Positions 17,359 to 60,336 of a stretch of DNA of 64,000 bases are shown in pieces (position 1 is the stretch's first letter; each line of letters starts with the position of its first letter). The notes under the pieces are model-generated. The model had not been told where the DNA came from. It did not search any database and worked only from the letters and a program-made list of their open reading frames with translations. The translations under genes were made by a program, and so were the position numbers. Origin of the DNA: Candidatus Levyibacteriota bacterium (GTDB lineage Bacteria > Patescibacteriota > Microgenomatia > Levybacterales > UBA12049); NCBI GenBank assembly GCA_963722305.1, contig CAVRKE010000002.1, positions 522,678 to 586,677 on the forward strand. Direction: 5' to 3'.

Positions 17359-17763
17359 TTAAGGGCTAAAGCCTGGAATTTTTAAAACATTAACCGTGAT
17401 AACTTGAATAAAAACCAAGGCAAAAACTGCTAATAAAAGACCGGCGATAGATGAATATAGATATCTTTTTCCTTTCCTAACCTGCATGGGGTTTCCTTGA
17501 GAGGTCATCAGGATGTAACCTGCGTAAATAATACCAAGCACAGCAACGCCTCCTATGAGTGACAGCCCAATACCATAAAATTTTTCGACAAATCCAACCG
17601 GGTCATTGGGAATACATCCAAAATCGGTAAGTGTCTCATTGACTAGGCAGTCCATGCTATGTTTAGCGTAGCACATTTTTGTCAATGGTTCTAGATAGCA
17701 CGAAGTTTCTAAAGTGGAGAAATTTAAATAAGTTAGTACATAGGGCGGGATTTGGGCGGGCAA
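17359..17763 (-). CDS. VirB2/TrbC-like pilin paralog
   Basis: 134 aa. The C-terminal half (…GIGLSLIGGVAVLGIIYAGYILMTSQGNPMQVRKGKRYLYSSIAGLLLAVFALVFIQVITVNVLKIPGFSP) is alignable to the C-terminus of 843..2318 (…ISGYRMMVSQGNPENIKNARDQLTAAIIGLL…NILQLPGFAQ). Confidence 0.5.
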   Translation of the reverse strand: MPAQIPPYVLTYLNFSTLETSCYLEPLTKMCYAKHSMDCLVNETLTDFGCIPNDPVGFVEKFYGIGLSLIGGVAVLGIIYAGYILMTSQGNPMQVRKGKRYLYSSIAGLLLAVFALVFIQVITVNVLKIPGFSP

Positions 17764-18016: not shown

Positions 18017-18964
18017 TCATCCAGGTATATAAGGTGTCTGCCTTTTTAAAACTGCATATACTCTATTGAGCAGTTTTCTTGATACCGCAATGGTTGCTTC
18101 TTTGTACCTCTTTCCCTCAGCTCTCTTCTTCTCGTAATACGCCTTAAGTTTCTTATCATGCCGTTGTGCAATAGAAGCTCCTGTATAGAGCATCTGTCTA
18201 AGGTAAGGAGAGCCTCTTTTAGTTAAATGGGTATTATGGTGTAATCTTCCTCCTGATTGTTTGACCTTTGGATCCAATCCCGCATAAGCAACGAGGGCTT
18301 TATCTGATTTGAACTGATTAATATCTCCGATTTCCGCAAGAAGTACCGTTGCTATTGTTTCTCCCACTCCCGGTATAGAGCAAAGCAGTTTAACAAGTTT
18401 TGAATCAACCTCTTCTTCTGCTTTCTTCCTAAATGCTTTGATTGACTGTTCTATGGTATCAATACAGACCTGCAACTCCTCAAAAGAAGCTGTATCATCC
18501 GGATCTACCTCTTGTACGTGCTGTTGTATTAGTAAAAGACGCTGTTTCATGTGTGTTAGCTTTATGGCGGTTCTCTCATGGGTTTTGGCAATGTGAAAAG
18601 TTTGGGTACTTATCAGCCTTCCTTCTCCGGCAAGAGCCAGCTTAGCAATGGTTAATGCGTCTTGAGGGTCAGTTTTTCTCTTTCGAACAGTTGCTTTGGT
18701 ATATTGCTTAGTCACAATGGGATTTAATAACCTCAATGGTATTTTAGAAGAAAGAGCCAAAAGTGCAAGTACCCTGTGGTATTCGGTAGTTGCCTCACAA
18801 GAGAGCAGCATCTTTTTGTACGGAAGAGCATTTAACCACTTATCGATACTTTCCTTGTTATTCTTAACGGTAAATGAATGCTTTATTCGTATTGATTTAT
18901 CAATTGCCACAGCAACAAGGGTGTCTTTTGAGACATCTACGCCTACAACTATCATTTTCATCAC
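18017..18964 (-). CDS. IS110-family transposase (DEDD-type)
   Basis: 315 aa. N-terminal MIVVGVDVSKDTLVAVAID is the characteristic IS110/IS116/IS902 start. C-terminal region (…LCSIPGVGETIATVLLAEIGDINQFKSDKALVAYAGLDPKVKQSGG…) matches the Transposase_20 domain. Confidence 0.7.
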   Translation of the reverse strand: MMKMIVVGVDVSKDTLVAVAIDKSIRIKHSFTVKNNKESIDKWLNALPYKKMLLSCEATTEYHRVLALLALSSKIPLRLLNPIVTKQYTKATVRKRKTDPQDALTIAKLALAGEGRLISTQTFHIAKTHERTAIKLTHMKQRLLLIQQHVQEVDPDDTASFEELQVCIDTIEQSIKAFRKKAEEEVDSKLVKLLCSIPGVGETIATVLLAEIGDINQFKSDKALVAYAGLDPKVKQSGGRLHHNTHLTKRGSPYLRQMLYTGASIAQRHDKKLKAYYEKKRAEGKRYKEATIAVSRKLLNRVYAVLKRQTPYIPG

Positions 18965-48929: not shown

Positions 48930-49655
48930 GTGCAGGACTTTTCTTTTAATAACGACAATTTAAAATTAAACGGCACACTTTTTTACCCTTCCCATAAAAA
49001 AGCTAGCAATCCGGCCATTCTTTTTGTTCACGGTTGGACCAGTGAGAGAAAAAGAAGTTTTCAATACGCCAAAGCACTGGTTGATTTAGGTTTTGTTTGT
49101 CTACTTTTTGACATGCGAGGACATGGAACCAGCGAAGGCGATATTAAAACTTCCTCCAATAAAGATTTTTTAAGCGATGTCGCCGCCGCCTATGATTATC
49201 TTTCAAAAATGGGCGACATAGACAAAGAAAATATCAGCGCTGTCGGAACAAGCTTTGGTAGTTATTTAATAACACTCCTTTCAGCTAAAAGAAAACTTCA
49301 GAATCTGGTGCTGCGTGTTCCGGCAGATTACCTAAACCAGAATTTTAATAAATCAAAAATGCTTTATAGCAGCAATATAGAGGAGATCAGAAGCTGGAGA
49401 GAAAAACCCAAAAACCCCTCCGAAACATATGCTTTAGAAGCATTAAACAACTTTGACGGGCAAGTTTTGATTATTGAGGCGGGAAAAGACGATACCATTC
49501 CACAGCAGACAATTTTAAATTATATGAATGCAGTAAAAGATAAATCCAAATTGACGCACATTCTTTTGAAAGACGCTCCTCATAGCCTAAAAGAAGGGAG
49601 ATTTAGAGACGAAGTCGAGCAAGTGTTTGCGAGGTGGTTTCAAAACAAACGCTAA
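48930..49655 (+). CDS. Alpha/beta-hydrolase fold protein
   Basis: …ILFVHGWTSE… and nucleophile elbow AVGTSFGSY (GxSxG); C-terminal Asp/His region. Confidence 0.55.
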   Translation: MQDFSFNNDNLKLNGTLFYPSHKKASNPAILFVHGWTSERKRSFQYAKALVDLGFVCLLFDMRGHGTSEGDIKTSSNKDFLSDVAAAYDYLSKMGDIDKENISAVGTSFGSYLITLLSAKRKLQNLVLRVPADYLNQNFNKSKMLYSSNIEEIRSWREKPKNPSETYALEALNNFDGQVLIIEAGKDDTIPQQTILNYMNAVKDKSKLTHILLKDAPHSLKEGRFRDEVEQVFARWFQNKR

Positions 49656-51973
49656 TGTCCTCCCGAAGGTGAAATTGTCGCGCTGGGGCTATGGATAAAG
49701 TTACAATCAGAGGTATTTTCCGTTCCTTTAATAAAATATTCGTCTCTTCCTTGGCATTTTCGCACTACCACATCACTGGGCATTTCCTCAACCAGATTGG
49801 AAGCGTTAGCGGGGAGCAGCAGATTCATGATTTTATTCCAAATGGGCGCGGCTCCGGTGATTCCGGAGGCAAGGGTTTGGCTCATCGGTGAATTGTCATT
49901 ATTACCAACCCAAACCGCAACCAAATAGTTGGGTGTAAAGCCAAAAGTCCAGTTGTCCCTTTTATTGTCGGAGGTACCGGTTTTAACCGAGACCGTATGT
50001 CCGGGAATATTCAACGGCGAATTAAGGCCAAACTCCAAAGAGCGCGCATTGTTATCGGCCAAAATGTTGGAAATAATAAAAGTCACACCCGAATCAAGGA
50101 CCTGATTAGGCAGTTCTTCCTGTTTTTGATAAAGAAGGTCATTGTCGTGGTCTGTCACTTTCAAAAGCGGATCTAAATCAACTCTTTTACCAAGATTGGC
50201 AATGGTTCCGTAGACAACGGCCATATCGGTCATTTTAACTTCCGCTGCACCAAGAGTAATCGATAACCCGTACTGACTGGGATCCCCCCAAGTGGTAATG
50301 CCCATTTTTTTGGCCAGGTTAACCATAGTGGAAACGCCAATTTTTTGCAAAGTTTTGACCGCCGGAACATTAAAGGAATTGGCAAAAGCAAATCTTAGCG
50401 GCACTTTTCCGTGGAAAGTACCATCATAATTTACCGGCGAGTAGGGTGTACTGCCGGGAATAAAATAGGTCACCGGTGAGTCGTCAAGAATAGTTGCGGC
50501 GGTAAAACCGTCACTTAAAGCCGCCGAATAAGTAACGACTTTAATTGATGAACCGGGTTGACGTAAGGACGTAGTGAGGTTGACGTTACCGCCGTTTGGG
50601 TCATTATAATCATGGCTACCAACCATGGCTAAGATATCGCCGTTGGCCGGATCGGTGACCAGAGCCGCACCGTTGGTTAAATTGAGGTATGCGTCATTAG
50701 TCACTTCCTCGCTAACGATGTCCTGGACTTTATTTTGTAAATTTAAATCAAGGCTGGTGGTAACGATTAAGCCGCCTTTTTCAACCATTGGTAATCCGAA
50801 TTTTTGCACCAATAAATCCTTAATATACATCACAAAATGGGGAGCAAAGATTGGTGTTTGCGGCGGCTGAAAAGCCAAGTCTTCACTTAAGGCCTGGTTT
50901 TCCTGGTCTTTGCTAATGTATCTAAGTTCCAGCATTTTTGCCAAGACCTCTTTTTGTCTCTGTTTCCAAAGGGTGGGATTGTCTCCATAAGGAGAGTAGG
51001 TGGTTGGCGCCTGCGGCATACCGGCCAAAAACGCAGACTGTGCTAAATCAAGTCCTTTGACGTTTTCCCCAAAATAGGTCTCAGAGGCCGCCTCAATTCC
51101 CCAAGCCGTTCCGCCATAAGGTACCTGGTTAAAATACATTTCTAAAATTTCGTTTTTGCTGTAAATTCTTTCCGCCCAGAAAGCCAGAATGATCTCCTTA
51201 ATTTTACGGGAAATACTGACCTCCGGCGTTAACAGGGTGGATTTAATCAGCTGTTGGGTAATGGTTGAGCCTCCTTGAATTGGCTTGCCGCTTAAATCGG
51301 CAATGGCCGCTCTGATGATGGCGTTAATATCAAACCCGGGGTTTTGGTAAAAATCCTTATCTTCAATGGCAATGGTGGCGTTAATCAGATTTTTGGGAAT
51401 TGAGTTTAAGGGAACCAAGGTCCGGTTTTCATTGGCGTAGATTTGGTAGAGAAGATTACCGTTGCGGTCATAAATTTTGGTGGTCTGTGGGATTTCCATT
51501 TGTGAAAGCTCGCTTGGATTAGGCAAACTGCTTAAAAATTCGTAAGCTGAAATAGGGATAACCACAAACACAATACAAAAGAAGAGCCCGAAAATGAAAA
51601 ACTTAAATTTTAGCTTGATCTGTTTTGGCGGAGGGTAAAAGGTAACCAAACGTTCTTTAACCGCCTTTTTCTTGATTATCTTTTCTCGTCTTTTGGGCCG
51701 AAATTTGCGCTTAATATTTTTGGAGAAAAGTAGCAGTCGAAACTTAGAAAGCGCAAAATAATTATCGACTGTCCTTTTCGCCGTTTTACTATATGACAAA
51801 ATTTTTTCAGCTGTTTTTCCCGGAATTTTCAGAATTTGTAAGGCTAAGTAAAACAAAAATTTGATTAAGAATTTTGTAATCTTCCAAGCGATGCCGAGAT
51901 AAAAAAGCACGAAATCGCCGATCTCGGTTAAAATTAAGATGACCGCGTTAATTAAAACAACTAATAACTTCAT
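49652..51973 (-). CDS. Class A penicillin-binding protein (GT51 transglycosylase + transpeptidase) with long basic N-terminal extension
   Basis: GT51 motifs EDKDFYQNPG, GGSTITQQLIKS; TPase motifs GSSIK, SFN, KTGT. Confidence 0.8.
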   Translation of the reverse strand: MKLLVVLINAVILILTEIGDFVLFYLGIAWKITKFLIKFLFYLALQILKIPGKTAEKILSYSKTAKRTVDNYFALSKFRLLLFSKNIKRKFRPKRREKIIKKKAVKERLVTFYPPPKQIKLKFKFFIFGLFFCIVFVVIPISAYEFLSSLPNPSELSQMEIPQTTKIYDRNGNLLYQIYANENRTLVPLNSIPKNLINATIAIEDKDFYQNPGFDINAIIRAAIADLSGKPIQGGSTITQQLIKSTLLTPEVSISRKIKEIILAFWAERIYSKNEILEMYFNQVPYGGTAWGIEAASETYFGENVKGLDLAQSAFLAGMPQAPTTYSPYGDNPTLWKQRQKEVLAKMLELRYISKDQENQALSEDLAFQPPQTPIFAPHFVMYIKDLLVQKFGLPMVEKGGLIVTTSLDLNLQNKVQDIVSEEVTNDAYLNLTNGAALVTDPANGDILAMVGSHDYNDPNGGNVNLTTSLRQPGSSIKVVTYSAALSDGFTAATILDDSPVTYFIPGSTPYSPVNYDGTFHGKVPLRFAFANSFNVPAVKTLQKIGVSTMVNLAKKMGITTWGDPSQYGLSITLGAAEVKMTDMAVVYGTIANLGKRVDLDPLLKVTDHDNDLLYQKQEELPNQVLDSGVTFIISNILADNNARSLEFGLNSPLNIPGHTVSVKTGTSDNKRDNWTFGFTPNYLVAVWVGNNDNSPMSQTLASGITGAAPIWNKIMNLLLPANASNLVEEMPSDVVVRKCQGRDEYFIKGTENTSDCNFIHSPSATISPSGGH

Positions 51974-52021: not shown

Positions 52022-54223
52022 TCAATGAGTTGGAGTGGGGGTTGGCGAGAGGTTTGGATGGGGACAACTTAGGCAATATCTGTCACCGGTCGGGTCGATA
52101 TAAACGGTTTCATTTTTAGTAGTCAGGTTATTCGTTTGGCCTTTGGCCGGTAAGTCTTGCGTGGTACTGTCAACTTGAGTGTCCCCGGTAACAATTTGAC
52201 CGTGGCTCGCTTCGGTGCCTTTAAGAATGTATTCGAACCTGGTCGGACAAGTTGCTCCGCTGACAGTCGTTGCCAGTCCCGTGTCGGAACAGACCGCTTT
52301 TTGGATAATATCCGGCGGCCGGGACATTGGCTCAGGAGCTCTGTCTTTCAAAAGATGCGACATAATGTCATTCCAGATCGGCGCGGCGCCGGTGATGCCG
52401 GAAACCAAGCCGCTCATTTGTGAATTATCGTCATTGCCCACCCAGGCGGCGACTAGGAATGAGGGAGTATAGCCGATGGTCCAATTGTCCCGGAAGTCGT
52501 TGGTGGTGCCGGTTTTGACCGAGACTGTTTGGCCGGGGATTTTAAGCTGCGAATTATCGCCAAATTCCATCATCCTAGCGTTGTTATCGGCCAAAATGTC
52601 GGAAATGATAAAAGCCACACCGTCCGGCAGAACTTTTTTGCCAAAAATCGGACTTAAAGGCGGAGTATATTCTTCCAAAACTTTGCCGGTTTTATCGGAA
52701 ACCTTCAAAATAGGCTGCAAATCAACCCGGTATCCCGCATTGGCGAAAACGCCAAAGGCAGTGGCCATATCGACCATTTTTACTTCCGCCCCACCCAAAG
52801 TCAGAGACAGTCCGTAACGCTGTGGGTCGGTAAAAGTAGTGATACCCATGGCCGAAGCAGTCGCCACCATGGCCTCCACCCCGTTTAACTCCAGCATTTT
52901 GACCGCCGGAATATTAAAAGAGTTGCCCAAAGCGTAGCGCATTTGCACCAGTCCGTGCCATTTGCCGTCATAATTGACAGGACAATAATCCGTTCCGCCC
53001 TGGTTCGGGAAGCAAATCGGCTGGTCAATAAAAGTGGTCGCAGCATTATAACCTTTCAGAAGCCCGACGGCATAGTTTATTGGTTTTATTGAGGAGCCCG
53101 GTTGTCTTAAAGCGGTGGTAATATTTACGTTGCCGTCTATTTGGCTGTCAAAATAATCTTTACTGCCAACCATGGCTAAAATTTCGCCGGTTCCCGGTTG
53201 AGTAACCAACGCCCCGCCATTAGTCACATGATAGTAAGTCGGCAGAGCGTCAACTTCGGTTTGCACCATTTTCTGAGCGTAATTTTGGATGTCTAAATCA
53301 AGACTGGTAATCACTTTTAAACCGCCTTCTTCGACCATTTTTTCGCCGTACTTGGCAATTAGTAAATCTTTAATATATAAAACAAAATGGGGAGCTTCGA
53401 TATCGTTGGTAAATTTTTTGTATTGCAAGTTTTCCTTTTCGGCTGCCTGCTCCTGGGCCTTGGTAATATAACCCTGCTGCTGCATGGCCGTTAGTACCTC
53501 AATCTGTCTATCTTTGCCCTCTTCCGGGTGGGCGCCAAACGGCGAAAACTCGGTCGGGGCTTGGGGTAATCCGGCCAAAAGAGCGCTCTGGGCCAAATCC
53601 AAGTCTTTGGCGTGTTTGCCAAAATAAGTCTCGGAGGCTGCCTCAACACCATAAGCGGTTCCGCCATAAGGCACTTGATTTAAGTACATTTCCAGAATTT
53701 GGTTTTTGGAATAGATAGTTTCGGTGGCGAAAGCTAAAACCACTTCTTTAATTTTTCTTAAAATTGTCTGCTCCTGAGTGAGCAAACTGTTTTTAACCAG
53801 CTGCTGGGTCAGGGTGGAGCCTCCCTGGATTTGGCGATGAAAAACAGTCGAAATAAAAGCCCTGGCAATGCCGCGGAAATCAACGGCGCCGTGCTGGTAA
53901 AAACTTTTGTCTTCAATGGCGATGGTTGCTTCCTGCATATATTTCGGAATGGTGCTTAAAGGAATGAAGGTTTGGTTTTTCTTGTCGTAAATGTTGTATA
54001 ACAACTTTCCGTTGCGGTCGTAAATGAGCGTTGATTGCGGGTTATTAGTGCTGCTTAGTTTGGTCGGAAGAGGCAAATCACGCAAAATAAAATAATAAAA
54101 TGAAAAAACAAACAAAACGAGGATTCCGACCAGCAAGCACTTTTTCCACTGGTGTTTTTTAAGGCGGACTTTTCGCAAGACCTTTTTATGCGGCCTAAAA
54201 TTTTTAAAAAGCGAAATTTTCAT
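52022..54223 (-). CDS. Class A penicillin-binding protein (second tandem paralog)
   Basis: EDKSFYQHGA, GGSTLTQQLVKN; GSSIKP, SFN, KTGT. Confidence 0.8.
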   Translation of the reverse strand: MKISLFKNFRPHKKVLRKVRLKKHQWKKCLLVGILVLFVFSFYYFILRDLPLPTKLSSTNNPQSTLIYDRNGKLLYNIYDKKNQTFIPLSTIPKYMQEATIAIEDKSFYQHGAVDFRGIARAFISTVFHRQIQGGSTLTQQLVKNSLLTQEQTILRKIKEVVLAFATETIYSKNQILEMYLNQVPYGGTAYGVEAASETYFGKHAKDLDLAQSALLAGLPQAPTEFSPFGAHPEEGKDRQIEVLTAMQQQGYITKAQEQAAEKENLQYKKFTNDIEAPHFVLYIKDLLIAKYGEKMVEEGGLKVITSLDLDIQNYAQKMVQTEVDALPTYYHVTNGGALVTQPGTGEILAMVGSKDYFDSQIDGNVNITTALRQPGSSIKPINYAVGLLKGYNAATTFIDQPICFPNQGGTDYCPVNYDGKWHGLVQMRYALGNSFNIPAVKMLELNGVEAMVATASAMGITTFTDPQRYGLSLTLGGAEVKMVDMATAFGVFANAGYRVDLQPILKVSDKTGKVLEEYTPPLSPIFGKKVLPDGVAFIISDILADNNARMMEFGDNSQLKIPGQTVSVKTGTTNDFRDNWTIGYTPSFLVAAWVGNDDNSQMSGLVSGITGAAPIWNDIMSHLLKDRAPEPMSRPPDIIQKAVCSDTGLATTVSGATCPTRFEYILKGTEASHGQIVTGDTQVDSTTQDLPAKGQTNNLTTKNETVYIDPTGDRYCLSCPHPNLSPTPTPTH

Positions 54224-55330: not shown

Positions 55331-56374
55331 ATGCTTTATAACTTAAAAAGTGTCAAGGACGCTCAAGTTCAAAATCAGACGGTGCTGTTAAGGGCTGACT
55401 TGGACGTGCCAATTGAAGATTTGCAAATTCGGGACGACACAAGGCTGAATGCCTGGTTTCCGACCCTTGAGTATCTGCTGCAAAATCAGGCTAAAGTCAT
55501 CATTGTCGGTCATTTGGGCAGGCCCAAAGGTGCAGACGAAAAATTCACCTTAAAACCGGTGGCAGAGTGGATCGCCGCTAAACTTCAAGGCCAGGTTCAA
55601 GATGAAAAAATCGGCGATTTCGCTGCCTGGAAAATAACTGACAGCGTTTCGCTTTTGCAAAACATCAGATATTATCCCGAAGAAGAGGACAATAATCCGG
55701 AGTTTGCCAAAAAGCTAGCCTCACTGGCCCAAATTTTTGTCAACGATGCCTTTGCTACCGCTCACCGGGCACACGCCTCAACCGAAGGAGTGGCGCATTT
55801 TCTTCCCTCATTTGCCGGTTTAAGGGTTTTGGAAGAAGTTGAAGTGCTTTCCAAAGTGCTGGAAAACCCCGACAGGCCGTTAGGAGTGATTATCGGCGGT
55901 GCCAAAATCGAAACCAAGCTGCCGTTGGTAGAGAAAATGCATGCTCTGGCGGATATGGTTTTGGTCGGCGGAACAATTATGGGCAACGAGGCAATCATTT
56001 CCGAAGTTGCCAAGAAACCAAGCGAACACAACTGTGTTTTACTGACTGCTTCGCCAATTGCCAATAAAATGGACGCCACTGTCGAAAGTATGCAAAAATT
56101 CGTCGCCGCGCTTCAAAACATGAAAACGATTGTCTGGAACGGACCGATGGGGCAAATCGAAATTGAAGAGTATCAATCGGGGACACTCGCTCTGGCAGAA
56201 GGCATCATCAAAATTCCGGCCTATACCGTGCTTGGCGGGGGAGACACGATAGGATTTCTCAAAAAGAAAAATTTGCTCGATAAATTTTCCTTTGCCTCGG
56301 TCGGCGGCGGCGCCATGCTCGAATTTCTCTCCGGTGAAAGATTGCCAGGACTCGTCGCCCTTGAGCAGAAATAA
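55331..56374 (+). CDS. pgk: Phosphoglycerate kinase (short form, 347 aa)
   Basis: …VLLRADLDVPIED…IRDDTRL…VIIVGHLGRPKG…; C-terminal …GGGAMLEFLSGERLPGLVALEQK. Confidence 0.8.
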   Translation: MLYNLKSVKDAQVQNQTVLLRADLDVPIEDLQIRDDTRLNAWFPTLEYLLQNQAKVIIVGHLGRPKGADEKFTLKPVAEWIAAKLQGQVQDEKIGDFAAWKITDSVSLLQNIRYYPEEEDNNPEFAKKLASLAQIFVNDAFATAHRAHASTEGVAHFLPSFAGLRVLEEVEVLSKVLENPDRPLGVIIGGAKIETKLPLVEKMHALADMVLVGGTIMGNEAIISEVAKKPSEHNCVLLTASPIANKMDATVESMQKFVAALQNMKTIVWNGPMGQIEIEEYQSGTLALAEGIIKIPAYTVLGGGDTIGFLKKKNLLDKFSFASVGGGAMLEFLSGERLPGLVALEQK

Positions 56375-56431
56375 TTTATTGAGTAGTTAGCTAGATTTTA
56401 TAGGATTTTATATTTAAAATCTTGACAAATA

Positions 56432-56455
56432 CTATAATGATATATATCATTATAG
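56432..56455. promoter_or_regulatory. Perfect 24-bp palindrome ctataatgatatatatcattatag overlapping a TTGACA-containing promoter-like region upstream of the TrpR/YerC-like gene
   Basis: Verified by eye to be its own reverse complement. TTGACA at 56422–56427 lies immediately upstream. Confidence 0.45.
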
Positions 56456-56512
56456 TAAACAAATAAGGTAGGTTGGGTAATTGTAAAAAGTAAAGATTTA
56501 AATAAATTTAAT

Positions 56513-56956
56513 ATGGCGCAGGTTTCTAAATACCCAGTAAGTAAAGACGTTTCAGACAGGATGTCTGAAGTATTTCAGCTGACAATTTCTTCTCTCAATA
56601 GTAAAGAAGACATCGAAGAATTTTTTGCGGAATTTCTTTCACCGGTTGAAAAGATCATGCTGGCGAAAAGATTATCGATTGCTGTCCTTTTGGCAAAAGG
56701 CTATACCTATCCCTCAATAGCAGCAGTTCTCAGAGTAACTCCAAGTACAATCGCCAGCGTCAGCCTAGCTTTAAAATATAAGGGGAAAGGCTACCAAAAA
56801 GCAGTCGAGAAAATATTGGTTAATGAGAAAATGAATGATTTCTGGCAAAAGATTGAAGATGCCCTAGACGGATTACCGCCGACAAAAGGCAGTTTTATTT
56901 ATTATCGCGATAAATACGAAAAGGAAAAGAGAAAGAAAAAGCTTAAAGCATTTTAG
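56513..56956 (+). CDS. TrpR/YerC-YecD-like DNA-binding protein
   Basis: 147 aa. …FLSPVEKIMLAKRLSIAVLLAKGYTYPSIAAVLRVTPSTIASVSLALKY resembles the Trp-repressor-like YerC/YecD HTH. Confidence 0.5.
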   Translation: MAQVSKYPVSKDVSDRMSEVFQLTISSLNSKEDIEEFFAEFLSPVEKIMLAKRLSIAVLLAKGYTYPSIAAVLRVTPSTIASVSLALKYKGKGYQKAVEKILVNEKMNDFWQKIEDALDGLPPTKGSFIYYRDKYEKEKRKKKLKAF

Positions 56957-56972
56957 TTCATTATTGAATTAT

Positions 56973-57053
56973 TCTCCGGCGAACGCCTGCCCGGTCTGGT
57001 TGCCCTCGAACAAAAAATCATAAAAGCGTGGGTTTCAAAAGAAGAACCTCGTT
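56973..57053 (+). pseudogene. Recoded duplicate fragment of the pgk 3' end (…FSGERLPGLVALEQKIIKAWVSKEEPR*)
   Basis: ttctccggcgaacgcctgcccggtctggttgccctcgaacaaaaa encodes SGERLPGLVALEQK, identical to the last 14 aa of pgk (56330–56374), but with about one-third of the nucleotides different (synonymous). Confidence 0.45.
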
Positions 57054-57056
57054 AAA

Positions 57057-57320
57057 TTATCGATACCTCAACTTCATTCCAACTATAAATACGCTTAAAA
57101 TAAGAACAACGATGTTAACTGAGATAACAGGAATAGACGAAAGAAGCAATCCATAAGCTGTCCAGCAAAAAGAAGAAAAAGCAATCATGGTAAAGGTAAT
57201 AAACGAAATGCTTTTTGTATCTTTTGTTTTCCAAACCCTAAAGGCTTGAGGAAAAAACATTATAATTCCTATTCCCGCTGCGGTGAATCCAAAAAAATTT
57301 GCAAGTTGTAGATTACTCAC
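57057..57320 (-). CDS. SemiSWEET / PQ-loop (MtN3-like) 3-TM transporter
   Basis: 87 aa, three TM helices. PQ motif …IIMFFPQAFRVWKTKDTKSISF…. Confidence 0.5.
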   Translation of the reverse strand: MSNLQLANFFGFTAAGIGIIMFFPQAFRVWKTKDTKSISFITFTMIAFSSFCWTAYGLLLSSIPVISVNIVVLILSVFIVGMKLRYR

Positions 57321-57448
57321 GTTTGTATATTCGATTATATCAAATTTTAATTTTCCTCTTGTTCACTTTCCGAAAAATTTGCTATACTGAATTTGTATGG
57401 TGAAGTACATGAGCTTCGCTCAGTACCTCGTAAAGGAGAAAAATTAAT

Positions 57449-58555
57449 ATGACTCGGGTCGCAATAAATGGGTACGGAAGAATTGGGAGGGTAGCACATC
57501 GGGTCATCCTCGAAAAATATTTCAACGACGTTGATATCGTGGCCATTAATGCCGGTTCCTCAACCGATATCAGAGGCTGGATGTACCTTTTAAAATACGA
57601 CACTTCTTATGGTCCGATTTATTCCTTGGATGTTTCCTACCAGGAAAAAGAGGAAAATCCAGCGCTTAAGGATTTAATCGGCTATCTTTTGCTCGACAAC
57701 AAAAAAATTCCGGTTATCTCGCAAAAAGACGCCACTTTGCTTCCTTGGAAAGACCTCGGTGTTGACGTAGTTATTGAATCAACCGGACATCTGGAAACAG
57801 AGGAAAAATTAAAAGCGCACTTAACCTCAGGTGCTAAGGCGGTGGTTCTTTCGGCCCCGGCCAAAGAAGGCAATGTGCCAACCATTGTGATGTCAATTAA
57901 CCAGGATAAAATTGCCGGCCAAACTTTAATTAACAATGCTTCCTGTACCACCAACTGTATTGCGCCTGTCGCCAAAGTGATGGTGGATGCATTTGGCGTC
58001 GAAAAAGCGATGATGACAACCATCCACAGCTACACTTCGGACCAAAAACTGGAAGACGGCGGGCATAAAGATTATCGAAGAGCCAGAGCAGCCGCCCAAA
58101 ACATTATCCCGACTTCAACCGGTGCCACCATTGCGGCGGCCCAGGTGATCCCGGAGCTCAATGGTGTTTTCGGCGGGCTTTCGGTTAGGGTTCCGGTGGC
58201 AGTCGGCTCTCTTTCCGATTTCACTTTTGTTCTCAAACGCCAAACTACCAAACAGGAAGTCAACGATACTTTAAGAAAGGCTTCGCAGACGCCGGCCTTT
58301 AACGGCATTATGGCGGTGACCGACGACCCCTTAGTTTCCAGTGATATTATCGGTAGCCCTTATTCCTCAATTGTTGACCTTTCTCTGACCCAGGTGATTG
58401 GCAACATGGTTAAAATTATTGCCTGGTACGACAATGAATACGGATACGCCAACAGACTGGTAGAGGCAGTGATCGCTATCGCTACGCCGCCTCAATCGGC
58501 GTCCACAGCGCCTACACTTCAACAACCCGCTGCTCCCCAACAACCAACAGCATGA
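57449..58555 (+). CDS. gap: Glyceraldehyde-3-phosphate dehydrogenase with Pro/Gln-rich C-terminal tail
   Basis: N-terminal INGYGRIGR (NAD binding); active site SCTTNCIAPV; …WYDNEYGY…. Confidence 0.85.
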   Translation: MTRVAINGYGRIGRVAHRVILEKYFNDVDIVAINAGSSTDIRGWMYLLKYDTSYGPIYSLDVSYQEKEENPALKDLIGYLLLDNKKIPVISQKDATLLPWKDLGVDVVIESTGHLETEEKLKAHLTSGAKAVVLSAPAKEGNVPTIVMSINQDKIAGQTLINNASCTTNCIAPVAKVMVDAFGVEKAMMTTIHSYTSDQKLEDGGHKDYRRARAAAQNIIPTSTGATIAAAQVIPELNGVFGGLSVRVPVAVGSLSDFTFVLKRQTTKQEVNDTLRKASQTPAFNGIMAVTDDPLVSSDIIGSPYSSIVDLSLTQVIGNMVKIIAWYDNEYGYANRLVEAVIAIATPPQSASTAPTLQQPAAPQQPTA

Positions 58556-59159: not shown

Positions 59160-60336
59160 ACATGTTTCTGAGTAGGCTGAGATACATAGGTACCACTTTT
59201 GAACTACAATAGCGGTTCAAAAGGAGGTGAAACCTATGAAATCAAAAGCACATAAGCCGGCATTGTATCATCCATGGGGATACACAACCTGGAGAGCAAT
59301 TGAAAAGGGAAAAGATAACTACTGGGATTATCTTCGTATTCAGGCAAAGTTGAATAAACTATCTCCAAAAGGACAACTTCATTTGGAATGGGTAATCTTT
59401 TACTACACGTTTGGAGAAAGAAACGTTAGTAAAACCACTAAGCACTTTGGTATTGCAAGAAAGACTCTAAGAGTCTGGTTAAAACGGTTTGACGGTAAGT
59501 TTATCAAAAGTCTTGAAGAGAAACCGAAAAGACCAAAACAAGTTAGGACATGGATGGTATCTCAAAAAGAAGAGGAGCAAATTATTGCGCTTCGAAAAGA
59601 AAACATGGAGCTTGGTAAAAGAAAATTAAAGATTCTCTACGCTAGAAAATACCAGGAGAATATCTCAACTTGGAAGATTGAACGGGTAGTAAGAAAGCAC
59701 AAATTATTCCAAGAGAAAAAGAACGGATACGTTAAAAGAAGACCTAAACAGCCTCGAATTCGTATCCATAAGGTAAAAGAACTATTACAGGAATATCCTA
59801 CGGGAGTAGTCTGGCATACGGACAGTATTATTATCTGGTGGTATGGCACAAGAAAAGTTATCTTCACAGCCTTAGAGAACAAAACTAAGCTTGGCTTTGC
59901 CAGAGTATACAAAACAAACTCTTCGGCAAATGCTGCAGACTTTCTGAAACGACTAAGCTATTTAAGCAATAATCAGCTTGCCATTATTCACTCTGACAAT
60001 GGATCTGAGTTTGATAAGGATTTTGCAAGAGTATGTGAAATACTTTCCATCCGACAAGTATTCTCCCGCCCCCATACGCCCAAGGATAATCCTTGTCTTG
60101 AGAAGTTTAATCATACAGTACAAAGAGAGTGGCTTAGTTTTTCTGTCATAGGGCTTGATGAAATTGATGAAGCAAATATTGATTTAACAGAATGGTTAGT
60201 CAAATACAACAGTATTCGTCCGCATCAAGCCCTTGACTACAAAACTCCTTTGGACTATGCTTATGAGCAATCTCCTCAACTGGTACCAATGACCCCAGCC
60301 CAATCAGTTTCTTGTTCAGCTGTAGTATAATAACGA
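59160..60336 (+). mobile_element. IS481-like insertion sequence (limits approximate; terminal inverted repeats not confidently identified)
   Basis: Transposase ORF with ~70 bp upstream and 8 bp before the next gene. The only candidate IR is weak (gtttctgagtaggctgag vs reverse complement of cccagcccaatcagtttc). Confidence 0.3.
59227..60330 (+). CDS. IS481-family-like DDE transposase (rve integrase core)
   Basis: N-terminal HTH region. DDE core …VWHTDSII… (D), …IIHSDNGSEF… (D), …PHTPKDNPCLEKFNHTVQREW (E). Confidence 0.65.
   Translation: MKPMKSKAHKPALYHPWGYTTWRAIEKGKDNYWDYLRIQAKLNKLSPKGQLHLEWVIFYYTFGERNVSKTTKHFGIARKTLRVWLKRFDGKFIKSLEEKPKRPKQVRTWMVSQKEEEQIIALRKENMELGKRKLKILYARKYQENISTWKIERVVRKHKLFQEKKNGYVKRRPKQPRIRIHKVKELLQEYPTGVVWHTDSIIIWWYGTRKVIFTALENKTKLGFARVYKTNSSANAADFLKRLSYLSNNQLAIIHSDNGSEFDKDFARVCEILSIRQVFSRPHTPKDNPCLEKFNHTVQREWLSFSVIGLDEIDEANIDLTEWLVKYNSIRPHQALDYKTPLDYAYEQSPQLVPMTPAQSVSCSAVV

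Follow-up and report, generated by a model that had tools for sequence, protein, structure and literature searches.

What is a second copy of the end of a glycolytic gene, spelled in other codons, doing behind the gene that follows it? The question is raised by the pgk locus in a 64,000-nucleotide stretch of the genome of a Candidatus Levyibacteriota bacterium (contig CAVRKE010000002.1, positions 522,678 to 586,677; the whole stretch is hereafter called the window). Between pgk (phosphoglycerate kinase) and gap (glyceraldehyde-3-phosphate dehydrogenase) lies yerC, a gene for a TrpR/YerC-like regulator, and behind yerC the terminus of pgk appears again. We call the upstream copy, which is the working end of pgk, T, and the downstream copy R; such downstream copies are referred to as relics. 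The evidence presented below suggests that R is probably the former 3′ end of pgk, displaced when a cassette carrying yerC recombined into the pgk tail at a hot-spot used by several cassettes. The elements concerned are the following, in window coordinates.

55331..56374, plus strand: pgk, phosphoglycerate kinase, 347 amino acids, intact (Pfam PGK PF00162, E 6.3e-96)
56314..56374, plus strand: T, the working pgk terminus (MLEFLSGERLPGLVALEQK and a stop), upstream copy of the repeat
56375..56421, plus strand: spacer of 47 nt from the pgk stop to the yerC promoter, putative left part of the inserted block
56422..56450, plus strand: yerC promoter-like site, TTGACA, 17 nt, TATCAT (11/12 consensus matches)
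56430..56457: perfect palindrome of 28 bp, TACTATAATGATATATATCATTATAGTA, the presumed YerC operator, overlapping the promoter-like site
56513..56956, plus strand: yerC-like gene, 147 amino acids, TrpR/YerC family, helix-turn-helix, TAG stop (PF01371, E 1.8e-11)
56959..57016, plus strand: R, the probable earlier pgk terminus, displaced (IIELFSGERLPGLVALEQK); 5′ part degenerate, 14-codon core intact
57017..57056, plus strand: open continuation of R, 12 codons (IIKAWVSKEEPR and a stop), its end adjoining the stop of the SemiSWEET gene

The pgk terminus recurs behind yerC

T and R form a direct repeat of 58 nt (56314-56371 and 56959-57016) with 42/58 identical positions (72%). Their local alignment score is 52, against a maximum of 26 among 200 shuffles of the downstream sequence, so the similarity passes formal alignment. 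Inside the repeat is a 14-codon core (SGERLPGLVALEQK, 56330-56371 and 56975-57016) where 31/42 bases match. All 11 differences, which are spread over 10 codons, are synonymous, and the longest exact run common to T and R in the window is 7 nt (TCTCCGG). When the N- and C-terminal peptides of all 80 open reading frames (ORFs) of at least 100 amino acids were scanned against the window, the T/R pair was the strongest match outside an ORF's own coordinates (E 4.8e-10); the only other strong matches (E 1e-6 to 2e-8) join seemingly paralogous or overlapping ORFs far apart. The shuffle control and this window-wide scan together rule out a chance similarity.

An original prediction, made from the letters of the window, had described the locus as a cassette inserted behind pgk and had read the downstream copy as the relic of an alternative pgk terminus. 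Its description of the repeat stands: the last 14 pgk codons do recur with identical amino acids, and the higher third-position GC given for R fits several codons (for example CGC, CTG and CCC where T has AGA, TTG and CCA, as read by eye from the codon table). The in-frame continuation of about 12 codons is likewise present. R lies in the yerC frame behind the TAG stop, where the sequence directly 3′ of that stop reads FIIELFSGERLPGLVALEQKIIKAWVSKEEPR and a stop, and the frame stays open for 12 further codons to 57056. This continuation is not conserved in the related locus L009, to which identity drops to 35-47% after 57017.

The gene pgk itself has a normal end. Its product terminates in ...GGGAMLEFLSGERLPGLVALEQK, and homologues 70-88% identical to it have equal length and an equal end. 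Among the PGK homologues P0121-P0240, GGGAMLEFL is nearly invariant, with single substitutions in 7/120. The last ~8 residues and the stop position are highly variable, and functional homologues with C-terminal extensions of 3 to 13 amino acids exist. Such a variable end fits frequent rearrangement at the end of the gene.

Empty sites and the probable resident copy

To decide which copy is the older resident, we turned to relatives of the window genome, which are Levybacteria of the candidate phyla radiation (CPR) and whose loci are labelled L001 and so on. A site was called empty if the pgk-gap junction of that locus has no yerC. In L100, pgk is followed by TAG CCTCAA..., the gap promoter and gap, with no insert at all. 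The closest relative of the window, L098, and also L002 have other small genes between pgk and gap, and no yerC. Relatives without the cassette therefore do exist, as an acquisition implies.

The flank of R is that of these empty sites. The R of L093 and its flank align with the intact tail and flank of L002 over about 110 nt, starting exactly at GGCGGCGGC. R of L009 with the following TAGCCCCAA matches the intact tail of L100 with TAGCCTCAA at 37/42 bases, the common flank being TAGCC(C/T)CAA. In L013, R is followed by a minus-strand gene whose homologue comes after the intact tail of L098. The spacer behind T at 56375..56421, in contrast, is unlike the native flank TA(A/G)CC(T/C)CAA seen 3′ of intact tails in empty sites, and it is poorly conserved towards L009 (63-67% identity with gaps). 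Because R and its flank are collinear with the intact tail and flank of empty sites, R appears to be the resident pgk end on its native downstream flank, and T, the spacer and yerC appear to be the inserted block. This block measures ~645 bp in the window and holds one regulator gene only.

Along pgk in the 3′ direction, the homology of the window to L098 breaks off at 56334, a point within the tail and just past the conserved GGGAMLEFLSG block. Along pgk, the proportion of synonymous differences (pS) between the two is 0.31-0.48 and rises to 0.53-0.69 in the 3′ third, a mosaic. Both the stop of homology and the diverged 3′ third agree with T belonging to the cassette. The differences between T and R are synonymous only, which is what selection on two diverging functional alleles would produce, and together with the mosaic they support the predicted recombination with a diverged pgk allele. 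The prediction needs a refinement here: R is indeed a relic terminus, but it would be the resident end, and it is T that would have arrived with the cassette. A tandem duplication of the segment from the tail to yerC was rejected, since the flanks of T and R are unrelated and that of R matches native flanks.

Relics among the relatives

We found 16 loci with yerC between pgk and gap, of which 13/16 have a copy of the pgk tail behind yerC. The copy follows the yerC stop directly in 12/13. In L022 it begins ~90 nt further on, and half an operator, a ribosome-binding-like site and a 16-codon ORF stub (MDSQYSIFDLKVKNYA and a stop) lie in between. L021, L094 and L095 have yerC and no relic behind it. 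The left edge of the relic falls in or just after the codons GGC GGC GGC GCA ATG, or (GGC)n-GCA-ATG, in most lineages and is eroded in the window, L009 and L018. L009 has an R orthologous to that of the window: the two have the idiosyncratic junction TAG TTCA TTAT in common and are degenerate in the same way in their 5′ part.

Relative to yerC, R lies in frame 0 in the window, L009 and L018, in frame +2 in six lineages and in frame +1 in two, so a read-through fusion is no general feature. For this reason, and given the ordinary use of TAG as a stop codon, we rejected the view that R generally extends YerC by read-through. Among about 100 loci we found no other pgk fragment and no second pgk gene; in none of the relatives examined is the second copy part of a longer gene. 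We also rejected the idea that yerC moves about and leaves behind a relic of the tail of any gene upstream of it: where yerC lies away from pgk, it is followed by the palindrome and not by a relic.

A patchy and comparatively young block

The genes flanking the insert place L098 nearest to the window (cvpA 92%, the penicillin-binding protein gene pbp 92%, pgk 88% and gap 95% identity), followed by L099, L100 and L009, and L001 and L002 are sisters (PGK 88%). The yerC block is patchy at this scale: it is present in the first and absent from the second member of the sister pairs window/L098, L009/L100 and L001/L002. Between the window and L009, pS is 0.44 in yerC against 0.64-0.74 for pbp, cvpA, pgk and gap, and between L014 and L015 it is 0.27 in the yerC block against a background of about 0.5. 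The yerC block is younger than its genomic background. Since the split of the hosts it has therefore passed from one lineage to another, or has been homogenised among lineages.

Other genes at the same place are also followed by copies of the pgk tail. In L015 and L017, a RelB/RelE-like toxin-antitoxin pair stands behind the first relic and is directly followed by a second one. In L107, an epimerase-like gene is followed by EFLAGVRLPGLVALEQK and a stop, with 40/50 bases matching the tail of the same genome; in L101, a 394-amino-acid gene precedes a decayed relic, EFLICECLHRLVVPEQK and a stop (38/54 bases). At least three cassette types besides yerC thus share this arrangement. What the original prediction had presented as the scar of one acquisition therefore holds as an arrangement but not as a private single event, since it is clade-wide, patchy and found behind other cassettes.

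The surroundings are stable. The gene order pbp, cvpA/CAP, pgk ... gap, cmk-like is conserved and only the content of the spacer varies. Insert and flanks differ in age, as the mosaic divergence indicates, and the pgk-gap spacer thus has the properties of a variable islet. Further occupants of the spacer are NADAR, an IS200-type TnpA, SemiSWEET, several small unknown genes, or nothing. The right part of the spacer in the window contains the following.

57057..57320, minus strand: SemiSWEET/PQ-loop gene, 87 amino acids (PF03083, E 7.4e-10; PF04193, E 2.6e-08)
57359..57388, plus strand: gap promoter-like region (TTGTTC ... TATACT), read from the sequence, right edge of the variable spacer
57449..58555, plus strand: gap, glyceraldehyde-3-phosphate dehydrogenase (PF00044, PF02800)

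The SemiSWEET gene is absent from the pgk-gap spacer of all fetched relatives, which have other genes there instead, and is thus another variable occupant. A PGK ending in ...LEQKIIKAWVSKEEPR may have been encoded next to SemiSWEET before yerC entered, with R as the working end of that pgk-SemiSWEET allele. The motif TTTCCTCTTGTT...AAAATTTGCTATACT occurs upstream of gap in L002, L100, L098 and L101. In L001 (5560-5718) and L013 (800-1350), an IS200-type TnpA lies upstream of yerC, beside an orphan copy of the gap promoter that breaks off within the -10 box; both the pgk tail and the gap promoter are duplicated there.

Evolution of the relic tails

Synonymous sites are saturated between most members of the clade (pS 0.6-0.8), so that a relic made once and left alone should be unrecognisable. 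Most relics are recognisable, and a single ancient insertion followed by neutral decay was rejected on this ground. Taken together, the relics look like a sample of functional tails. Their entropies at codon positions 1, 2 and 3 are 8.3, 5.9 and 22.1, and those of working tails are 8.1, 5.4 and 21.8. In four independent pairs of relics that share a junction, 26/166 sites differ at positions 1 and 2 against 35/83 at position 3 (Fisher p 9e-6). The changes in R follow the pattern of coding sequence and not that of a freely decaying scar, a behaviour only partly accounted for here.

Many relics have their nearest sequence in the tail of their own genome (L013, L015, L017 and L022), and others (L006, L023 and the second relic of L015) are distant from it and look more like the tails of different lineages. 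We infer that relics have time and again taken up sequence from functional tails: whenever an occupied allele recombines with an unoccupied one and the crossover lies inside the tail, part of a recently functional tail would end up at the relic position. Such refreshment would explain both the synonymous recoding of relics and their codon constraint. If the 5′ part of R travels with yerC, a degenerate 5′ part beside a pristine 3′ part, as seen in the window and L009, would be accounted for as well. A role of R as an RNA structure or terminator that replaces a downstream palindrome was examined and rejected: RNAalifold predicted 0 pairs in the consensus of 13 relics, there is no terminator-like site and no Rfam match was obtained.

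The YerC-like regulator and its palindrome

The yerC product matches the Pfam family Trp_repressor (PF01371) with 44.4 bits, above the gathering cut-off of 27 (E 1.8e-11), which confirms the TrpR/YerC-like gene named in the prediction. Its 308 homologues come nearly all from Levybacteria and other Microgenomates; most are exactly 147 amino acids long with an invariant C-terminal F, and the protein has a conserved lysine-rich C-terminal part. The promoter-like region before the gene is also as predicted, and its arrangement is present in relatives. Its palindrome is perfect, at a length of 28 bp instead of the 24 bp first given, and is separated from the yerC start by a leader of 55 nt.

At loci where yerC does not neighbour pgk (at most 72% identity to the window protein), a lineage-specific palindrome of 24-30 bp stands on both sides of the gene, one copy over the promoter and the other 3-40 nt past the stop. 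This two-sided arrangement was seen in about 47/57 distinct loci within L011-L092 (e.g. L012, 3960-4480), whatever the downstream gene, and the palindrome sequence co-varies with the YerC protein lineage. As lineage-specific copies flank yerC on both sides, the palindrome is most simply taken as the putative operator of YerC. Its overlap with the promoter and its co-variation with the protein lend indirect support to a putative repression by YerC. Every homologue examined that has about 79% identity or more to the window YerC sits between pgk and gap, at the 16 loci that include the window. In this pgk-linked clade the downstream palindrome is missing, and only L022 keeps half of it. A search of the window for a second yerC or a second operator found none.

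The regulator is thus no exotic gene; it belongs to a conserved Levybacteria/Microgenomates family with its own putative palindromic operator. Our literature search returned no paper that links YerC to the candidate phyla radiation, and the analysis highlights this regulator, palindrome-flanked on both sides across Microgenomates. Several irregular yerC copies were also seen. In L039 and L040, a yerC C-terminus (...KKAF and a stop) lies directly upstream of the next yerC palindrome. L025 has an N-terminally truncated second yerC behind the first, so tandem copies or fragments occur. In L020, a 20-nt GC-rich palindrome, CCTGCCTGCCGGCAGGCAGG (2915-2940), is inserted near the yerC 3′ end and shifts its frame, with the result that the ORF runs into the relic in another frame (163 amino acids).

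Proposed mechanism and alternative explanations

In the explanation that we regard as probable, a self-contained cassette would have recombined into the last ~20 codons of pgk. This cassette would consist of the replacement tail T, the spacer, a promoter with the palindromic operator, and yerC. Its entry would have left pgk at full length and placed the old tail with its native flank directly behind the yerC stop. In the Levybacteria clade, the stretch between the pgk block GGGAMLEFL(S/A)G and the gap promoter would be a hot-spot for small promoter-bearing genes (yerC, the RelB/RelE-like pair, the 394-amino-acid gene, the epimerase-like gene, SemiSWEET and others), with pgk-tail copies separating successive occupants. 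Occupied alleles may have been exchanged between lineages, and the joining might be performed by general recombination of the host with no dedicated recombinase. Two routes are conceivable: homologous exchange at the strongly conserved block GGCGGCGGCGC(A/C)ATGCTNGAATT, or a one-sided homologous anchor in pgk or gap and, at the other end, illegitimate joining within the GC-rich (GGC)n codons.

Several observations weigh against this explanation. No recombinase gene was found in or near the cassette or among the ~45 long ORFs of the 64-kb window, nor in any fetched pgk-gap spacer of the relatives; the only transposases of the window are of the IS110 and IS481 types, both outside the pgk-gap spacer. 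The joining mechanism therefore has to be inferred. Between the window and L009, T differs at 11/42 bases, a similarity no greater than that of the background and a poor fit to a simple recent co-transfer of T with yerC. The third-position bias of the shared-junction relics is explained only through the refreshment proposed above. In L107, L022 and L013, T and R have lineage-specific codons in common, which would also fit a duplication in situ, and the explanation does not account for the operator half and ORF stub between yerC and R of L022.

Second in rank, and rather unlikely in our estimate, is that a dedicated site-specific recombinase, with its gene elsewhere in the genome, uses the pgk tail as an attachment site embedded in coding sequence. 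Cassettes would then circulate as circles with one tail copy each, in the manner of integron cassettes or Xer-dependent modules, and the relics would be kept intact as working sites. It takes this rank because four unrelated cassette types have the same kind of junction, with a tail copy directly after the stop that starts within the same ~30-nt stretch. Two-relic arrays exist, presence and absence are patchy between sister genomes, and relics keep codon positions 1 and 2, which are those that never vary in the working tail. Against the account stand the absence of an integrase from the cassettes, the fetched pgk-gap loci and the 64-kb window, and the lack of an identical core, given the 7-nt maximum for exact T/R runs in the window. 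Moreover, an attC-like fold is not conserved in R, the left edges of relics vary, and the relic of L101 and the 5′ parts of those of the window, L009 and L018 are clearly decaying.

A wider form of this idea is about as unlikely, namely that the last ~20 pgk codons are the recombination site of a cassette system of the candidate phyla radiation, served by a recombinase encoded elsewhere or by specialised host recombination. In it, small promoter-bearing cassettes, each tied to a tail copy, would be captured, stacked and exchanged at this one site, and tail copies would stay codon-intact since any of them could become the working pgk end after a rearrangement. A more exotic variant would have the relic translated, as a PGK-tail peptide or as an addition to YerC by read-through.

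A duplication in situ seems improbable. Here a break-repair or transposition-like insertion would have copied ~50-70 bp of the target, so that T equalled R at birth, and the two would later have diverged with occasional gene conversion. The near identity of T and R over 32 nt in L022, the 6/51 differing nucleotides in codons 4-20 of T and R of L013, the rare AGG codon common to T and R of L107 and the many relics nearest to the tail of their own genome all speak for it. T and R of the window, L006, L023 and L018 do not: they differ at most synonymous and hardly any replacement sites, whereas a neutral copy is expected to show mostly replacement changes (29% of random changes in R are synonymous). 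R also stands on its own native flank and T on a different one, and the insert has neither a transposase nor terminal repeats.

It is very unlikely that R is expressed, be it as a peptide of 18-20 amino acids from the retained MLEFL ATG that would mimic the PGK C-terminal segment or, for the window, L009 and L018, as a stretch added to YerC when the in-frame stop is read through. Codon-like constraint in the shared-junction pairs, an R stop position that is mostly kept and an ATG kept in 11/15 of the relics listed would suit this. So would the fact that the yerC-linked relics without ATG and TTG (window, L009 and L018) are exactly those in the yerC frame. Yet the frames 0, +1 and +2 relative to yerC allow no single recoding mechanism, no convincing ribosome-binding site was seen by eye, and TAG is an ordinary stop in the window (8/45 long ORFs). 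The loci L021, L094 and L095 manage with yerC and no R, disabling changes occur elsewhere (P to L and G to D, L101), and the same relics stand behind unrelated cassettes. To our knowledge, a PGK-tail peptide has no known role.

Least probable of all is that R remains from a second complete pgk downstream of yerC, once under the downstream YerC operator and later internally deleted: the stub of L022 resembles PGK N-termini loosely (a weak likeness) and long coexistence of two working copies would explain synonymous-only divergence, but about 100 loci hold no second pgk and no pgk fragment except the tail, yerC located elsewhere never adjoins pgk, and relics also follow cassettes other than yerC.

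Further features of the window

The two transposase genes mentioned above are an IS110-family (DEDD) gene at 18017-18964 on the minus strand (PF01548 and PF02371) and an rve/IS481-type gene at 59227-60330 on the plus strand. The latter lies between a cytidylate-kinase-like and a DUF5667 gene, which are adjacent in L006, L100 and L098, and is thus a separate insertion in the window genome.

A hairpin precedes gap in its leader (57395-57426, plus strand), with the conserved core ...CTTCG(A/C)(C/T)TTCGCTCAG...; it is also found in L002, L006, L094 and L029. Its fold in the window has -13.9 kcal/mol (z -2.2), and no Rfam match was obtained. In L029 a similar element precedes a different gene. The gap gene of L100 (4076-5235) is called as three overlapping pieces, probably owing to assembly frameshifts or because it is a pseudogene.

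Upstream of the cvpA/CAP-pgk unit, two class A penicillin-binding protein genes (transglycosylase and transpeptidase) stand in tandem on the minus strand at 49652-51973 and 52022-54223, a pair also present in L101. The ORFs at 843-2318 and 17359-17763, both on the minus strand, have a similar C-terminal hydrophobic segment, and that at 843-2318 has a match to PF18895, a family of type IV secretion pilins.

Comparison with known systems

Of the known systems, the element e14 in icd/icdC of Escherichia coli comes nearest. In the account of PMC13626634, which cites Hill et al. 1989 (PMC210168), e14 is inserted in the last codons of icd and supplies a replacement end, and icdC is the old end on its far side. 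The same account states that the two icd ends differ mostly conservatively or synonymously and that excision recombines them into a working chimera (PMC13626634, citing PMC210168). As with e14 (and phage 21), the insert at pgk sits in the end of a gene of central metabolism, the gene stays functional and the old end is a short fragment. A direct repeat of the 3′ end of the target gene lies on both sides of the insert, pgk is kept intact by what appears to be a replacement end (347 amino acids, as in several close homologues), and the unoccupied relatives L100, L002 and L098 have one tail with the native flank. The differences are those of machinery and scale. The 15-kb prophage e14 encodes an integrase and has a defined attachment core; the insert studied here has ~645 bp and holds only yerC, no tyrosine or serine recombinase was found among the long ORFs of the window, and with exact T/R runs of at most 7 nt no identical crossover core is present. 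In addition, several unrelated mini-cassettes use one site here, sometimes in tandem.

Serial insertion at one conserved gene end is also known from tandem genomic islands at tRNA and tmRNA genes, which form arrays of gene-repeat-island-repeat-island-repeat, carry integrases and are kilobases long. Their repeat is an exact core in an RNA gene, in contrast to the recoded protein-coding tail of pgk. Integrons resemble the locus in that a site of ~60-70 nt recurs between single-gene cassettes, all at a single fixed place in the chromosome. Here, however, the recurring site is coding sequence with no conserved hairpin (an attC fold was sought in 13 relics with RNAalifold, giving 0 pairs), and neither the window nor the fetched loci have an adjacent intI and attI. 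Integron cassettes are mostly promoterless and in one orientation, whereas yerC and the toxin-antitoxin pair have promoters of the TTGACA/TATAAT type, and SemiSWEET and the gene X are on the minus strand. The locus does not look like an insertion sequence or transposon either: no transposase and no terminal repeats lie between T and R, and the duplication is 58 nt and diverged, not short and exact.

In homology-facilitated illegitimate recombination during natural transformation, a mechanism documented by name and in use in the literature, one homologous arm anchors the incoming DNA, and a short microhomology rich in GC provides the joint at the other end. Here pgk or gap could serve as the arm, and no stretch in the vicinity is richer in GC than the (GGC)n codons. 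For these organisms the process is hypothetical, and by itself it gives no reason for joints of four cassette types to fall within one and the same stretch of 30 nt. As regards the regulator, the match above the cut-off and the palindromic site over its own promoter are shared with the TrpR/YerC-YecD family (PF01371); the 147-amino-acid form and, in most Microgenomates, the palindrome on both sides are particular to the group studied here.

Bacteria of the candidate phyla radiation have tiny genomes with few recognisable mobile elements, and how they gain or swap accessory genes is poorly understood. The pgk locus offers a concrete case that can be followed in many metagenomes: the hot-spot is fixed and lies where an essential gene of glycolysis ends. 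Single-gene cassettes would enter it without breaking pgk, and each event would leave a dated marker in the form of the displaced tail. If the tail copies do function as sites of recombination, the locus would represent a new type of system for capturing cassettes; if ordinary recombination produced them as by-products, it would still serve as a useful natural record of exchange between lineages. Among the systems compared, we file it with insertions into the 3′ end of a protein gene that bring a replacement end, as a recombinase-free, multi-cassette hot-spot in a lineage of the candidate phyla radiation.

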